Source: a virus. From it: a stretch of 64,000 bases of DNA. Position numbers and translations under genes: made by a program. Shown piece after piece: positions 903 through 8,431 of this stretch. The DNA lies in IMG/VR virus record IMGVR_UViG_3300010883_000017, positions 9,849-73,848 of that record; one strand, written 5' to 3'. Every line of letters starts with the position of its first letter. The stretch's first letter is position 1. The notes under the pieces are model-generated. The model saw nothing but the letters and a program-made list of their open reading frames with translations. It was not told the origin of the DNA and ran no database searches.

Positions 903-906
903 CCAA

Positions 907-1020
907 AGGTTAGCGAAGAATAGCAAAGTGAGGTTGCGGCTAGTTATGCGTGGGTGTGAAATTTCGTGCATTGTTTAGCAAGTGCCCCCGTTATGTAGAA
1001 ATATATACCGGGGGATTTTT
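907..1020 (+). ncRNA. pentamer-periodic guide-like RNA unit U1 (15 pentamers + GAAA hairpin 985-1014)
   Basis: aggtt agcga agaat agcaa agtga ggttg cggct agtta tgcgt gggtg tgaaa tttcg tgcat tgttt agcaa; G at position 2 in 14/15; hairpin followed by ATTTTTAATCCAAG. Confidence 0.8.
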
Positions 1021-1026
1021 AATCCA

Positions 1027-1084
1027 AGTGCAGTGAAGAGAGACTAGAAGTGCAAATCCAAGTAACACAAGGCAAAGTAGGACA
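1027..1084 (+). ncRNA. truncated/degenerate pentamer unit U2 (no terminal hairpin)
   Basis: Follows the ATCCAAG linker; agtgc agtga ... agtaa cacaa ggcaa agtag gacaa with one register slip; runs into the next ATG. Confidence 0.45.
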
Positions 1085-1633
1085 ATGAATATCTGCCATG
1101 AGCACGAGTTCATACTATGGGCACACCCGAGAACCGCAGCGCGTTTTGTATATTCTGCGCTGCGGAACCGCGGAAGCATGGGTCCTCTCACGCATCGAAC
1201 CGGTGTTCCGATAGACGGCGCTGGTTACAGTGTTGTTTGCACGGTGCGCAATCCCTATACGCGAATGCTATCTGCGTGGAAGTGGACGAATGCGGTGGGA
1301 AAGCAGCGGTACTCGCCGGAGAGTTTTACGGAGTTTGTAAGAAAGCACACGCCGTTATGGGGGTTACCGCCGATTTCAAAGGACCTGGGCCACAAGTTGA
1401 AGATGGTCAAATACTTTGTGCGCACAGAGTCGATTGAGAAAGACTTACGCGCACTCCCCTGGGTTCCGGACACACATTCGTTCCCCAAGAATACGTACTG
1501 TAGTAATTATAAGGGCTACACTCCGACCGCTTTGTATGACGAAGAAGCACAAGAGAAAGTTCGCCGGTTGTATTGCGGAGATTTTGCAGAGTTCGGATAC
1601 GATCCAGATGTGATTCCCGCAACGTTTTATTAA
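1085..1633 (+). CDS. sulfotransferase family 2 protein
   Basis: HPRTA (5'PSB-like), VRNPYTRMLSAW (3'PB), C-terminal DFAEFGY. Confidence 0.75.
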   Translation: MNICHEHEFILWAHPRTAARFVYSALRNRGSMGPLTHRTGVPIDGAGYSVVCTVRNPYTRMLSAWKWTNAVGKQRYSPESFTEFVRKHTPLWGLPPISKDLGHKLKMVKYFVRTESIEKDLRALPWVPDTHSFPKNTYCSNYKGYTPTALYDEEAQEKVRRLYCGDFAEFGYDPDVIPATFY

Positions 1634-1646
1634 CGAAAGAAGGACA

Positions 1647-1907
1647 ATGAGAGTAACGGAGATTTCTGTAGAAGTAGGCAGAACTGCCACCATTAATTAC
1701 CAGAGCGCGCGCAACTCAGTTGGTCTTACAGCCACCCTAGCGGCTGATGACCACGCGCCTACCGCGATCCGCTCGTTACAAAAGCAAGCCGTAGATATGC
1801 TTCTAGGTGACAACGAACAATTTCGGGACGCCGAAAATGTGACTTCTGTGGATGCGGAGAGCCTAGATGCGGCTATTCGTGCAGGGGCGGAGTCTCGCGA
1901 ACACTGA
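1647..1907 (+). CDS. hypothetical protein
   Basis: ORF with GAAGGA RBS. Confidence 0.6.
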   Translation: MRVTEISVEVGRTATINYQSARNSVGLTATLAADDHAPTAIRSLQKQAVDMLLGDNEQFRDAENVTSVDAESLDAAIRAGAESREH

Positions 1908-1931
1908 TTTACCGTGGGTAACGGGCAAATA

Positions 1932-2960
1932 CTTTGTTATCCATAACAGGATTTTTGATCTAAGTCGTGCCCCGTAGTGTGGAGAGGATCTAAGAGGACT
2001 ACCGCCGACAACAGGAAGTACGGTATGCATCCTTGGCGTGCAGAAATGTGCGCCAGGGGTTTTTTGATCTAAGGCCAGTCTTGAGGAACGAAGTTCGGGA
2101 AAGTCTCGATGAGTTTACTTGTGTACTGCCAATTTTAGTTCGCAATAGTGATGGAAAGCGGTGCGGATTTTAGCGCGGCGTAGTACAGTGCCCCCGCCAT
2201 GTGGAAACGCGTGGCGGGGGATTTTTGATCCAAGGGAAGAGGCGCAAAGGGGTACCAAGTTGAGCTCCGCATACAAACGCTTAGAACTCGGCAGTACAGC
2301 GAGGGATAGCGCTGCGCAGCGATGCGTAGACTAATGTAAGTAAGCATCCCTGTCGTATGGAAACATGCGCCAGGGATTTTTTGATCTAAGAAATAGCAAA
2401 GCAGCGTACGGGCATGATCACTCATAACAAGTCGAGCGCACTCTAGGTGTGTGCGGTATACAAGAGTAACAGCCCCCGTCATGTAGAAATGTGTGACGGG
2501 GGATTTTTGATCTAAGCCGGGTAGGGTAGAGGGATGCTCGGTAAATACCAGCCGGGACAAGTGTGGCCGTCAAGTGCGGGCTCAGTTAAGTTAGCGCTTC
2601 CGTCGTGCAGAAATGTGTGGCGGGGGATTTTTGATCCTAGGAAAGAGCCGTTGTGGCAAGTGGAGAGGAGCCCAGACCAGCATCGTATAGTAGCGCTCGG
2701 TCAAGCTCGGGATACCTTAGCCCGCGTAATCAGAGATGGTTGCGCGGGTATTTTTGGCCCCGTTCGTCTAGTGGACTAGGACACCGGCTTCTCAAGCCGG
2801 GAACAGGAGTTCAATTCTCCTACGGGGTACATTTTGATCCAAGTGGAGTCGATATTACCGGTGTATAGGGGAGGCTAGTCCTGCAACGAGCAGTTCTGCG
2901 TCGCTCAGATAACCAGACTAGTGGGCCCGGGCGTTCGTTACGGGCGCTCGGGCTCATTTA
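1932..2960 (+). repeat. array of seven pentamer-periodic guide-like RNA units (U3 1963, U4 2072, U5 2233, U6 2389, U7 2515, U8 2639, U9 2842) separated by hairpin + ATTTTTGATCYAAG repeats
   Basis: Hairpins at 2031-2058, 2191-2220, 2348-2375, 2473-2502, 2597-2626 and 2721-2748 (GAAA/GAGA loops) and 2922-2956, with compensatory changes and G-U pairs; intervening tracts have 5-nt periodicity. Not a CRISPR array. Confidence 0.88.
2757..2829 (+). tRNA. tRNA-Glu (anticodon CTC), no encoded CCA
   Basis: Acceptor GCCCCGT/ACGGGGT, anticodon arm CCGGC-TTCTCAA-GCCGG, T arm AGGAG-TTCAATT-CTCCT. Confidence 0.92.
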
Positions 2961-2997
2961 TTACGTGGCAAACTGGGTTCAAATAGGGAATGTAAAT

Positions 2998-4041
2998 ATG
3001 AAAAGCAGGAAGAAAAAAGTTAAGCAAAATACAAAGCGAAACGCGCCGAAAACATCAGTTTTGCGCCGCAAGAATACACGTTTAATGAGCAGGACTTCCG
3101 GAGGACGGCAGTCAGTTGTCGAAGCGCGTCTTGATAAAAAGGCCGATACAATTTTGGCCAAAGCAAAAATCATCAAGATAGCTGCGCAACCAACAAAGGT
3201 GTACCGCACTGTGAAAATTGACGATCTCCAGATCGACAACTCTTATCAGCGTCCGCTGAAAGAAGGTCATATTGCTGACATCATGATGTACTTCAATTGG
3301 GAGGGCTTCGGCACACCAGTTATAGGACGCCGTACTGGTGGCGGGCTATGGTTAATTGACGGGCAGCAGCGGATTACCGCAGCGCAGCGCTTGGGTGCTA
3401 CCAGCGTTGGCGCAGAGATCCGCGATTCTGTAGGGCCCAAATATGAAGCAAGTCTGTTTCATTTGTTGAACTCAACGAGCGTCGTCCCGACGAAGATGCA
3501 GATCTTCCGCGCGGCATTGCGCGCGGGTAATAAGAACGCCGTTGCTATCAATAAAGCAGTTAAAGAGGCGGGATTTCAAATCCATTTGAATGCGGTCAAT
3601 TATAGCGGCAGCGAGTGGCCGTATATTCGAGCACTCAGTCGTTTAGAAAAGCTGTTTAAGTACGGCGGCGTACAATTTCTTACGGAGGTGCTCTCGATAA
3701 TTAGTGAGACGTGGCCGGAAGAAGATGACGCAGTTCGCGAGGACGTTATCGGTGGAATGCACCGGTTTATTCGTTTTACTCGGTACAGTGATCCGCGCCC
3801 CAAGGGCTGGTTGCACGAGCTCATGCCCACAAGGGGGATGACGCGCCGCGATCGTATCGTAGAGGCGATTACGCAGAAGGGTCTGACTGCTGCAGGCTTA
3901 CATAACAAAGCTGCGAACAGCAAGGAATCGGCGTCTGGCTACAGCCGCGCCGAAGCTGTGCAGCGTATCTTGGACGAGACGTGCAGGTTTAATAGCCGCC
4001 GTAGAACGCCTAAAAGTACCGCTGCCGACGACATGGTTTAA
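2998..4041 (+). CDS. ParB/Srx-like N-terminal domain protein (DUF6551-like)
   Basis: LQIDNSYQRPL and LIDGQQR motifs; basic N-terminus. Confidence 0.7.
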   Translation: MKSRKKKVKQNTKRNAPKTSVLRRKNTRLMSRTSGGRQSVVEARLDKKADTILAKAKIIKIAAQPTKVYRTVKIDDLQIDNSYQRPLKEGHIADIMMYFNWEGFGTPVIGRRTGGGLWLIDGQQRITAAQRLGATSVGAEIRDSVGPKYEASLFHLLNSTSVVPTKMQIFRAALRAGNKNAVAINKAVKEAGFQIHLNAVNYSGSEWPYIRALSRLEKLFKYGGVQFLTEVLSIISETWPEEDDAVREDVIGGMHRFIRFTRYSDPRPKGWLHELMPTRGMTRRDRIVEAITQKGLTAAGLHNKAANSKESASGYSRAEAVQRILDETCRFNSRRRTPKSTAADDMV

Positions 4042-4096
4042 TACATGCGTATAAGCCCCCACACACACACTTTGCGTGTGTGCGGGGGTTGTTTAC

Positions 4097-4171
4097 TGCT
4101 CTGTGCTGCTGCGCGATACAAAGCGGAGCTGGGTCAAGCGGAGAAATGCCCGGGCCAGCATAGCAGAGTTT
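4097..4171 (+). ncRNA. pentamer-periodic guide-like RNA unit U10, directly upstream of the Cas7-like gene
   Basis: tgctc tgtgc tgctg cgcga tacaa agcgg agctg ggtca agcgg agaaa tgccc gggcc agcat agcag agttt; G at position 2 in 14/15; preceded by a CCCCC..CGGGGG hairpin (4056-4088). Confidence 0.82.
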
Positions 4172-4203
4172 TTGTTTTTGAAATTAAATGGAGGAATTTG
4201 AGT

Positions 4204-4998
4204 ATGCCAACCACAAAAAAGGCCCCTAAAAAGGCCACTAAAAAGAGAGGCGTTAAAGGAAATATGTCTGCGATGTTAGCAGAGATGCCAGACGACGCGC
4301 TTGCTACCATAGAAAAAGAGGGGGGAGACCTTCTCGACCTGGAGCTTATTGAGTTTCACTGGTTGGAGTGTGAAATCATCGGATCAAGTCCTTTGGTTAC
4401 TAATCGGTTCTCTGATGAGTCTTTGGATGCGATCGAGGGTAATCAGACCCAAGGAGCAACTGGTAAGAAGCTTAAGAAGCCCCCGCGACAACCTGAGAAG
4501 GAGTTTATGCAGGCTGCGCATATATGTAAGGGGAAAGCAGATCCTGCGCACCTTGAGAAGAACATCTATGGATTTCCCGCTGTCGCTTTGAAAAAGGCCA
4601 TGGCTAACGGGAACTACAGATACGGAGGCGCGAAGGATAAGGTGTCGCAGATGGGCGCATTTCATGTGCACGGCCCCTGGCACGGGCTGATCGAGGTGCA
4701 GGGGCTTGATGACAAGCCGTGTATCCCCTCGATGGGACGTGATATGGTCCAGCTTCCTAAGGGGCAGATTGCGTCTATCGCGTATAGACCATACTACTTC
4801 CCGTGGAAGATGAGCGTATTTATCCGGTATTGTCCGACCTTGATGTCCAAGGACGAGCTGATTCACGCCCTGTATATCGCAGGCAATTGCATCGGCATTG
4901 GTTCTTGGCGCACGGAAAAGAGCGGGGACAAGGGCTCGTTCGACGTCGGTGATATCAAGTACCACGGAAAAAACTTCCAAGCACCTCTGTGCTCGTAA
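4204..4998 (+). CDS. stand-alone Cas7/RAMP-like RNA-binding protein (Vipr-like candidate effector)
   Basis: GGAGG RBS; EIIGSSPLV strand, YGFPAVALKKA helix, RPYYFPW, and Gly-rich C-terminal loop AGNCIGIGSWRTEKSGDKGSFDV typical of Cas7-group RAMPs. Confidence 0.75.
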   Translation: MPTTKKAPKKATKKRGVKGNMSAMLAEMPDDALATIEKEGGDLLDLELIEFHWLECEIIGSSPLVTNRFSDESLDAIEGNQTQGATGKKLKKPPRQPEKEFMQAAHICKGKADPAHLEKNIYGFPAVALKKAMANGNYRYGGAKDKVSQMGAFHVHGPWHGLIEVQGLDDKPCIPSMGRDMVQLPKGQIASIAYRPYYFPWKMSVFIRYCPTLMSKDELIHALYIAGNCIGIGSWRTEKSGDKGSFDVGDIKYHGKNFQAPLCS

Positions 4999-5332: not shown

Positions 5333-5971
5333 GTGCATATTGTCCACATCATCGCATCTGAAGGAGCAGATGCCGATGATGCCCGCCTGATGGCGGAAAA
5401 CGGGATAGAAGGCTACGGCAACGGAGACGTGTGGGATTGGTACGAGGTTGGAGGTCGCTGGGAGGGCTTTATCGGTGCCACTTATGGTGAAACTGGAGAA
5501 GAGCAAGTCCCGGGGGTAAACCAGCTTTGTTACGCAGAGAATCCCGAGTTATTTAACGAAACCATAGACAACGCGATCAGCGGTCGAAACGCTGAGTTAC
5601 TTGAGGCGTTACACGCCATCCGTGGTGACGTAATTAGTTCTGAGGTAGTTCCTGAGCACTTCATGGGCCTGCCCATAGATAATAAAGAAGCAGTGGCAAA
5701 AAGGGTATCAGAGCAAAATGTTGCACACAGCGCCGAGTGGCAGGCACTACTAGCCTGCAATACAGTGGCCGATCTGGACAAGATAAACGGCCAACACCAC
5801 CTGGTGTTTTACAAGGTTTACAAACTAATGAAGGGGGTGATGGGTCACTATGATTTTGACAGCCGCTTTTACGACGCAGACGCCGGTAGCACGGGCCGCT
5901 CGTACGTAGACGACCGGAAGGGGTGCGACCCGGATAAACAATGGATTACCGTTTTTGACCTACACAATTAA
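5333..5971 (+). CDS. hypothetical phage protein
   Basis: WDWYEVGGRW motif and terminal DLHN, a common phage family pattern. Confidence 0.65.
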   Translation: MHIVHIIASEGADADDARLMAENGIEGYGNGDVWDWYEVGGRWEGFIGATYGETGEEQVPGVNQLCYAENPELFNETIDNAISGRNAELLEALHAIRGDVISSEVVPEHFMGLPIDNKEAVAKRVSEQNVAHSAEWQALLACNTVADLDKINGQHHLVFYKVYKLMKGVMGHYDFDSRFYDADAGSTGRSYVDDRKGCDPDKQWITVFDLHN

Positions 5972-5981
5972 GGAGTTTTAA

Positions 5982-6224
5982 ATGGCAGTACAGGAGACCT
6001 TTAGTCTTACAGACATCTTTGATGAGGCGCAGCTCACCAGATTAATCACTCTTTGGAAGAAACCAGGCACCACCACCGAAGATATATGCACTAAAATAAT
6101 TGAGCCCAATATGGGTCAGATTAATGAAAAACTGAGCATACTTACAGATGGTAGGATGGCTGACAATTACCCACAGTACATTGCGTACTGTTGTGAATTT
6201 GCATTAAGGAAAACAGATAATTGA
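5982..6224 (+). CDS. hypothetical protein
   Basis: AGGAG RBS, operonic spacing. Confidence 0.6.
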   Translation: MAVQETFSLTDIFDEAQLTRLITLWKKPGTTTEDICTKIIEPNMGQINEKLSILTDGRMADNYPQYIAYCCEFALRKTDN

Positions 6225-7628: not shown

Positions 7629-8431
7629 TGGCAACACTGTTATTGGGCCCCCGCGTCCCAAACGTGGCGGCCACGTGGCGTAGCGGTATGAGGGAAGTTT
7701 TGCCCCTTCCTTGCTCAAATTTTCGTGAGTCTGCGCGTGCGCTAGCTCAGGATGATCTTCTTCGCGCGTGTTACCTTATTGAGAAAGTGTGGGAGTTCGA
7801 CGAGATATACCGGGGTGACTACTGGCCACCCAGGTCGGAGCGTGTGGATATTCCGGAAGCTATTTTTGCAGCCACAGCAGTCGACCGGTATCCGGCGAAC
7901 ATATCGCTTATTTGTTGGTGGTCTTTGTGGCGAGATTTTCCAGTCGCGCTTGCCCTATACGAACACGAGCTGCTGATGACGGTAAAAGCCCACAACCAGC
8001 CCGGCCAGACGGGTATTCAAGGCAGGTACTTTCGAGATCTATCAACAGCCGTTTATCGGTGCGGTAGGCGTCTTCGCGAAGCTGACGTACCTCCTGCGTC
8101 TAAATTAGCGCGAAAGATTATAAAGGAGGTTGAATGGCTGGGGGACGAGCGGCTTCACTCGTGTCACCGGAGCTACCTTACGCATTCTAATCGTAAGTGG
8201 TATGGCCAGTACGGCTGGCGAGATCCTAATATCAAGCTGCGGGTTGACCAAACGGTTAAACGGACGACCTTGTTTGATCACGTCGGTGTGGCAATGTGCC
8301 AGACCGACTACGGGCTGCCGATGTTTGCGTATGAGTTTTGGTTTCCGGATAGCGTTGTTGAATTTGCTGAATGCGTTCGGTACGAGCATCCGGGTTTGCT
8401 GCGCGCAGGCGGACTAGCGGTGCCCGTCTAA
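7628..8431 (+). CDS. MSMEG_6728/pyrimidine-dimer glycosylase-like protein, divergent
   Basis: LP..NFRESARAL N-terminus and WLGDERLHSCHRSYL motif; the KQxVE segment is not conserved. Confidence 0.5.
   Translation: MATLLLGPRVPNVAATWRSGMREVLPLPCSNFRESARALAQDDLLRACYLIEKVWEFDEIYRGDYWPPRSERVDIPEAIFAATAVDRYPANISLICWWSLWRDFPVALALYEHELLMTVKAHNQPGQTGIQGRYFRDLSTAVYRCGRRLREADVPPASKLARKIIKEVEWLGDERLHSCHRSYLTHSNRKWYGQYGWRDPNIKLRVDQTVKRTTLFDHVGVAMCQTDYGLPMFAYEFWFPDSVVEFAECVRYEHPGLLRAGGLAVPV

Follow-up and report, generated by a model that had tools for sequence, protein, structure and literature searches.

Does a tract of five-nucleotide repeats in an uncultured marine phage encode a guide RNA and, if so, which gene would that guide read? 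The question is raised by unit U4, a non-coding element in bases 9849-73848 of the 73.8-kb IMG/VR phage contig IMGVR_UViG_3300010883_000017, which is estimated to be about 35% complete. These 64,000 nucleotides are called the window throughout, and coordinates are given within it. U4 is compared here with the vrRNAs of VIPR, a DNA silencer that is guided by RNA in the manner of CRISPR and was first reported in 2026 (10.64898/2026.04.26.720920, 10.64898/2026.04.26.720927, 10.64898/2026.10.15.759431). From the sequence we think it probable, though well short of certain, that the U4 tract encodes a VIPR vrRNA, whose guide most likely targets a gene for an HsdM-type N6-methylase. This reading is carried by the periodic anatomy of the locus, by homology of a neighbouring gene to Vipr, by an in-frame motif match and by the excess of that match over chance.

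Repeat structure of U4 and the motif it spells

2072-2191, plus strand: U4 repeat tract, 24 A-G-Y-N-N pentamers
2127-2191, plus strand: hairpin-proximal 13 U4 pentamers, whose variable dinucleotides (NN) spell AVTANPPFS(I/M)(D/E)(K/N)W, the N6-methylase motif IV
2072-2126, plus strand: hairpin-distal 11 U4 pentamers, with no recognisable motif
2191-2226, plus strand: U4 3' tail, a 13-bp GC-rich hairpin with a GAAA loop, then AUUUUU (terminator-like)

Within U4, 11 of the 12 AG dinucleotides share one 5-nt phase. The pentamers have G at position 2 in 19 of 24 cases, a pyrimidine at position 3 in 18 and A at position 1 in 15, while positions 4-5 are unbiased. Taking those last two positions as NN and reverse-complementing them gives A V T A (N/K) P P (F/L) S (I/M) (D/E) (K/N) (W/C) V and so on. 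A first-pass annotation of the sequence had proposed this decoding, and the pentamers as we re-cut them return identical dinucleotides and the same reading. It had also described the last 11 or so positions as unrecognisable, which agrees with the distal 11 NN matching N6-methylase genes at chance level only. The sequence of the U4-type tail is conserved in six units.

In published VIPR systems the vrRNAs consist of GGY/NN pentamers followed by a 3' tail and are bound by Vipr, a RAMP protein that stands alone. Their NN pair with double-stranded DNA (dsDNA) under a '1-nt skip rule' that passes over the wobble base of each codon; either strand can be targeted, and the natural targets are rival satellites and prophages (10.64898/2026.04.26.720920). 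The canonical repeat frame is G1-G2-Y3-N4-N5. U4 is a gapped, wobble-skipping guide that matches this skip rule and, because the skipped base coincides with the wobble position, the guide would read the positions that determine the amino acid.

A Vipr homologue at the locus

4204-4998, plus strand: vipr gene, encoding a stand-alone Cas7-like RAMP protein of 264 aa

A profile built from this open reading frame (ORF) and 12 homologues matches PDB 36pp_D, 'SUSP1 Vipr protein', across the G-loop with E=1.3e-8, and because of this match we assign the locus, by sequence, to VIPR, a system that is itself already known. An AlphaFold model of the ORF (pLDDT 74) resembles Csm3, Cmr4 and type VII Cas7 (Foldseek probability 1.0, VIA Z 10.9). 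The further VIPR features found at the locus are tandem 5-nt repeats, a structured 3' tail, wobble-aligned NN and the absence of a self-target; when seven units were compared with their own window, the best gapped matches equalled those of shuffled guides. The leader of vipr carries the same type of pentamer tract as the array.

We examined 27 loci related to vipr, drawn from metagenomes and viral contigs. Long G arrays with a 5-nt period flank Vipr homologues of 28-75% identity on 20+ metagenomic and viral contigs, and most of the related loci with enough flanking DNA have such arrays beside the vipr homologue (L007, L021, L025, L027 and L030, for example).

The locus resembles the type II VIPR system of SUSP1 in having a phage-encoded stand-alone RAMP homologous to SUSP1 Vipr, 5-nt repeats of three scaffold and two variable bases with a conserved structured 3' tail, one vrRNA-like tract upstream of vipr with the array elsewhere in the locus, and NN that read codon positions 1-2 of coding sequences without a self-target. 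It differs from SUSP1 in its scaffold, which is A-G-Y instead of G-G-Y, and in its tail, a simple 13-bp hairpin plus U-tract where the SUSP1 clade has a pseudoknot. The array here, which contains a tRNA gene, is found 1.2-3.3 kb upstream of vipr and is separated from it by a ParB-like gene, and no recognisable vap1 was found at this locus. The inferred targets also differ, being DNA methylase motifs here and satellite or prophage regulators in SUSP1.

Type III CRISPR Csm3 and Cmr4 (Cas7) are the best structural matches (Z ~10.9) and share with Vipr the formation of helical RAMP filaments on guide RNA with periodic base flipping. They differ from this locus in their 6-nt periodicity, contiguous 5-nt pairing and RNA targets, and they need multi-subunit effectors, CRISPR repeats and adaptation genes, none of which is present here.

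We consider it very improbable that U4 is not a guide at all and serves as a sponge or binding site for a TRAP-like, NAG-reading ring protein, or that the units are terminators and processing signals around the tRNA. The (N)AG period of 5 does recall TRAP sites, which have NAG triplets about 5 nt apart on one RNA strand, the hairpin and U-tract are terminator-like, and a tRNA lies inside the array. However, the tracts here exceed TRAP sites in length, their variable dinucleotide is in phase with codons, and they go with Vipr, whose gene is next to the array and has such a tract in its own leader. A family-wide association of Vipr with pentamer arrays and codon-phased motif matches would be unexpected for a sponge. 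TRAP itself (PF02081) is not encoded in the contig (73.8 kb, about 35% of the genome), and with this absence and the Vipr link the TRAP-like sponge RNA was dropped as a candidate.

Search for the U4 target

All U4 target searches used exact windows of 9-13 NN or allowed up to three mismatches. In 596 Gb of genomes, a 10-codon gapped pattern (A N P P F S I/M D/E K/N W/C) had nine exact matches, where about 1.1 would be expected by our own arithmetic from 4^20 with uniform composition. Four of the nine are in-frame matches to ANPPFSMDKW within ORFs of 496-534 aa that carry HsdM_N and N6_Mtase domains (L035, L037, L039 and L041; Pfam E-values 1e-101 to 1e-105). They come from three Flavobacteriaceae genomes and one Holophagae genome, two unrelated lineages.

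To give a non-circular sample, we drew 40 genomes evenly from the class to which one of the matched genomes belongs and took 29 N6_Mtase loci from them. The whole U4 guide had a mean best match of 8.0 NN on these loci, compared with 7.53 (sd 0.13) for order-shuffled guides, and none of 300 shuffles reached the observed value; several of the best whole-guide matches land in frame on ANPPF. Motif IV sites were then anchored on NPP[FYW], giving 26 unselected sites, and the nine non-anchor positions of the proximal 13 NN were scored on them. These positions matched 2.31 times per site versus 0.56 by chance, a value reached by 2 of 2000 shuffles.

The resemblance of U4 to the HsdM motif is real and beyond chance. 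As a reading of sequence, HsdM-type motif IV is well supported for the 13 proximal NN and unsupported for the distal 11, and the apparent breadth of the match across HsdM genes is low. The earlier claim that U4 encodes the HsdM motif VTANPPFSxDKW stands to this extent, with enrichment of the proximal NN on motif IV and four in-frame HsdM matches, and fails at full length, where we found no gene matching the whole guide. The extension of the match through all 24 positions, on which that claim was to be checked, was seen in no sampled gene; of the nine 10-codon gapped matches, four are in HsdM and five lie elsewhere.

Several observations weigh against an HsdM target or against U4 working as a typical vrRNA. 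The VIPR authors' criterion for a natural target is at least 80% of NN matched, and no such target was found; the best whole-guide match is 14 of 24 NN (58%), in the Holophagae HsdM. The 12-codon gapped pattern of the first-pass annotation had no exact match in the 596 Gb, and four windows tiling the guide had none in IMG/VR. The five 10-codon matches outside methylase genes comprise three copies of one conserved Acidobacteria element without an open frame and two that look like chance. On the 26 N6-methylase sites the distal 11 NN gave 0.73 matches per site, versus 0.69 by chance. Five U4 pentamers lack the conserved G, three of them within the matched core, and the repeat number of 24 is above the 9-16 reported for SUSP1-clade vrRNAs. 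Finally, in SUSP1 perturbation of GGY, in constructs that included GGY>AGY, abolished silencing (10.64898/2026.04.26.720920), so that function of an AGY scaffold here depends on the predicted change in the Vipr pocket described below.

Some of these points are what would be seen if U4 were a genuine VIPR vrRNA with an incidental likeness to NPPF, its true target being some other unsampled gene or intergenic site that matches most of the 24 NN. The lack of any target at 80% or above in every search, the chance-level distal half and the five exact matches outside methylase genes all fit this explanation, as does a look-elsewhere effect, since about ten decoded units were scanned for any known motif. 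Against it, two independent HsdM lineages are matched in frame on the catalytic motif, the non-anchor flanking positions are enriched fourfold in unselected genes at a level that so few shuffles reach, and two other tracts of the locus spell the C5-methylase catalytic motif. We regard an incidental likeness as unlikely on balance, though serious enough to be kept in mind.

The fall of the enrichment to chance, which is sharp at the 13/11 boundary, also bears on whether U4 is a composite, in which the proximal 13 repeats form the methylase guide and the distal 11 are either a second guide or a trimmed or disordered, non-guiding 5' extension. The excess of repeats over the 9-16 of SUSP1-clade vrRNAs (10.64898/2026.04.26.720920), the flexible ends of the SUSP1 filament (10.64898/2026.04.26.720927) and the staggered or overlapping vrRNAs known in other VIPR types are in keeping with such a structure. 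However, the two halves follow on directly, with no hairpin, no GATCYAAG motif and no phase slip between them, the distal half has no IMG/VR match of its own, and the HsdM region downstream of NPPF...W is simply variable, so that a single guide on one gene gives the same picture. A composite U4 seems to us distinctly unlikely.

For a single guide on an HsdM-type gene, either the full target gene is as yet unsampled or the guide works with partial matches. A diverged full-length target may have been missed, because the searches were confined to the windows and mismatch limits given above. When the 13 NN were searched with up to three mismatches in 401 Bacteroidota genomes, one matched, which is the genome on which the sample was centred; none of the 400 others did, and controls also gave 0.

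The closest published parallel is SUSP1 vrRNA4, whose guide lies on the active-site codons of a satellite recombinase, so that escape takes a non-synonymous change in the catalytic core and damages the enzyme (10.64898/2026.10.15.759431). U4 is like vrRNA4 in being a wobble-aligned guide over codons of catalytic residues. It differs in that vrRNA4 has a mapped, near-perfect and experimentally validated target, whereas U4 has a motif-level match of 10-14 of 24 NN to a different enzyme class.

The acidobacterial stretch was also looked at on its own (L033 at 2407, L034 at 7310, L036 at 2846). It matches 12 U4 NN, and its reading, ...TAKPPFSIENC..., soon runs into a stop. The match may have arisen by chance in a single ancestral sequence, or the stretch may be a non-coding or decoy-like site.

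Sister units and the methylase theme

2639-2718, plus strand: unit U8, whose NN spell D-L-I-I-G-G-P-P-C-Q-A-F (C5-methylase motif IV)
4097-4181, plus strand: pentamer tract of the vipr leader (U10 in the first-pass annotation), whose NN spell L-I-G-G-F-P-C-Q-P-F-S

A 10-codon pattern from U8 had 28 matches in IMG/VR, and all 28 are in frame on IGGPPCQAFS. The six matching ORFs that were tested are all C5 DNA methylases (PF00145), and the best full-length match of U8 is 13 of 18. These matches are phage-borne C5 methylases, which need not be components of restriction-modification (RM) systems. The contig itself encodes neither N6 nor C5 methylase genes.

The catalytic motifs of DNA methylases thus form a theme that, at the level of motifs decoded from the sequence, is real for three tracts of the locus (U4, U8 and the vipr leader). 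HsdM as the target class of U4 gains support from the sister units, since these encode the catalytic motif of the second main class of DNA methylase. The first-pass annotation had gone further and suggested systematic targeting of RM methyltransferases; the N6 and C5 motif IV sequences in the three tracts agree with this in part, while the suggestion remains a motif-level one with no mapped set of targets. A stronger version would make the array a panel of motif-level guides, each vrRNA reading just codon positions 1-2 of the most constrained catalytic motifs and so silencing methyltransferase or RM genes across many hosts or rival elements, with some 10-13 NN sufficing. We think this unlikely; if true, the phage would have in this panel a weapon, guided by RNA, against restriction or epigenetic marking.

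Neither 'methyltransferase' nor 'methylase' appears in the main text of the VIPR discovery preprint (10.64898/2026.04.26.720920), and the string 'methyl' is absent from that of the competition preprint (10.64898/2026.10.15.759431).

Gapped word matching of the relatives' arrays to methylase loci gave only chance-level or low-complexity matches. The closest syntenic relative, L008, whose Vipr shows 75% identity, carries no more than two or three vrRNA units (5728-6000, 7820-7935), and by eye their NN contain no methylase motifs, which suggests fast turnover of guides among related phages.

The A-G-Y scaffold and the repeat-reading pocket

The canonical GGY scaffold was not found at this locus. 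Over 161 pentamers the consensus is A-G-Y (A 45%, G 81%), which lies within the published 'related consensus' or YNNNG class. Non-canonical VIPR repeats have been described as YNNNG, NNNGG and NNNNG (10.64898/2026.04.26.720920) and as WGT/NN and TGH/NN (10.64898/2026.10.21.760802), and these have one invariant G, as does the repeat here, which fits YNNNG or WGY/NN. In the text of those preprints the non-canonical repeats appear as logos and no targets are reported for such loci.

By cryo-electron microscopy, SUSP1 Vipr places one protomer on each repeat, with G1 read by H17/D177, G2 by R138/W178 and Y3 held in a pyrimidine pocket, and the target forms a gapped R-loop triplex (10.64898/2026.04.26.720927). 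Aligned to SUSP1 Vipr, the window protein retains W178 and R179 and has Ser in place of D177 (GIGSWR); the position of H17 is Asn in the window's Vipr clade, in an N-terminal alignment that is weak. The same two positions follow the array type among relatives. An E or D in the G-loop with His in the beta1 motif accompanies GG-type arrays (L007, L021, L024, L025, L030), and S or A in the G-loop with Asn in beta1 accompanies AG- or TG-type arrays (window, L008, L017, L027, L032). We infer that the Vipr clade of this locus has a changed pocket for repeat position 1, and AGY may for that reason be native here. Covariation of the G1-contacting residues with repeat position 1 was not found in the text of the VIPR preprints as available.

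Proposed mechanism and significance

By analogy with SUSP1, the U4 RNA would be transcribed from the plus strand, and Vipr (ORF 4204-4998) would polymerise on it with one protomer per pentamer, burying A-G-Y and presenting NN. The NN would pair with two of every three bases on one strand of a dsDNA target, and the Vipr filament would then block transcription of that target. The 13 tail-proximal NN are predicted to be complementary to the coding strand of motif IV (A-V-T-A-N-P-P-F-S-x-D/E-K/N-W) in a gamma-class, type I HsdM-like N6-adenine methyltransferase, and the distal 11 may read the variable segment downstream of this motif. The target would be an as yet unsampled hsdM-like gene of the host, of a defence island or of a rival mobile element. 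The steps from filament to dsDNA binding and silencing, and the ownership of the target gene, are taken here from the literature or inferred.

Silencing of hsdM would remove both the modification and the restriction of a type I system. The catalytic motifs of N6 and C5 methyltransferases are a likely VIPR target class and, if this is confirmed, VIPR would extend past satellite and prophage regulators into RM or epigenetic conflict. The 13-of-24 match, likewise if confirmed, bears on how much complementarity VIPR needs. The locus shows that raw sequence of an uncultured marine phage is enough for the VIPR code to be read, and it adds a natural A-G-Y scaffold together with a Vipr clade in which both of the residues reading G1 in the SUSP1 complex are different. 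The gain is incremental, as the target is deduced from a motif and the system has already been described.

Array layout and neighbouring genes

903-2975, plus strand: vrRNA array, about 9-10 non-coding 5-nt-periodic units with repeat families D1-D4
2062-2073, plus strand: inter-unit motif TTTTGATCTAAG, whose terminal AG is in phase with the first U4 pentamer
2757-2830, plus strand: tRNA-Glu(CTC), inside the array and followed by TTTTGATCCAAG
2998-4041, plus strand: ParB-like / DUF6551 gene between the array and vipr, syntenic only in the close relatives L008 and L011
6238-6834, plus strand: candidate accessory (vap-like) gene, 198 aa, beside vipr in eight loci, down to 22-28% identity

Windows of phased AG number 42 on the plus strand, all within 880-2970 and 4071-4200, and 0 on the minus strand, compared with about 6 per mononucleotide shuffle of the window. 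Most array units end in a conserved GC-rich hairpin, a U-tract and then the GATCYAAG motif. The sequence TTTTGATCYAAG occurs in eight copies within the array and, allowing 0-1 mismatch, nowhere else in the window. Searches with the hairpin/GATC motif gave no match in IMG/VR, and blastn of the array to 50,697 phage records matched the tRNA alone.

The tRNA and the TTTTGATCCAAG behind it together span 2757-2843. Because TTTTGATCCAAG trails both tRNA-Glu and the vrRNA hairpins, it suggests that the array units and the tRNA share a single processing or termination signal. Ribozyme-interspersed and staggered arrays are described in the VIPR preprints, in whose text no tRNA-bearing array is reported.

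The array stretch is gene-poor, with two small ORFs inside it. The ORF at 1085-1633 is sulfotransferase-like and has a leader with phased AG; the 86-aa ORF at 1647-1907 has no family match. Both are conserved in L008, where the 86-aa ORF lies at 5452-5727. The ParB-like protein had no relatives in IMG/VR. The 198-aa product of the candidate accessory gene belongs to PHROG 15946, a family of unknown function; it had no match in Pfam, and its fold had none in the PDB, where Foldseek returned nothing with E below 0.29.

Distant relatives carry continuous, hairpin-free GGY/NN arrays (L007 6216-6790, L021 1396-1800, L025 2660-3060, L030 4906-5287). In these arrays GGCAGG(C) recurs as punctuation at spacings of 5k-1 nt (49, 54, 59, 69 and 74), which amounts to a one-base frame slip per unit, as expected for the published staggered arrays with 1-nt overlaps.

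Occurrence in seawater and RNA-library coverage

Several seawater metagenomes, which come from different studies, contain the locus at 99% identity or above. Two seawater RNA libraries have contigs over 3761-4358, which takes in the leader tract and the start of vipr but not the array at 900-2975 with U4; the gap speaks neither for nor against expression of U4, since libraries of this kind generally lose small RNAs. Ahead of the vipr leader, the terminator hairpin has a CA-repeat length polymorphism at 4059-4060, one RNA-library contig having an additional CA and another being 2 nt shorter than the window.

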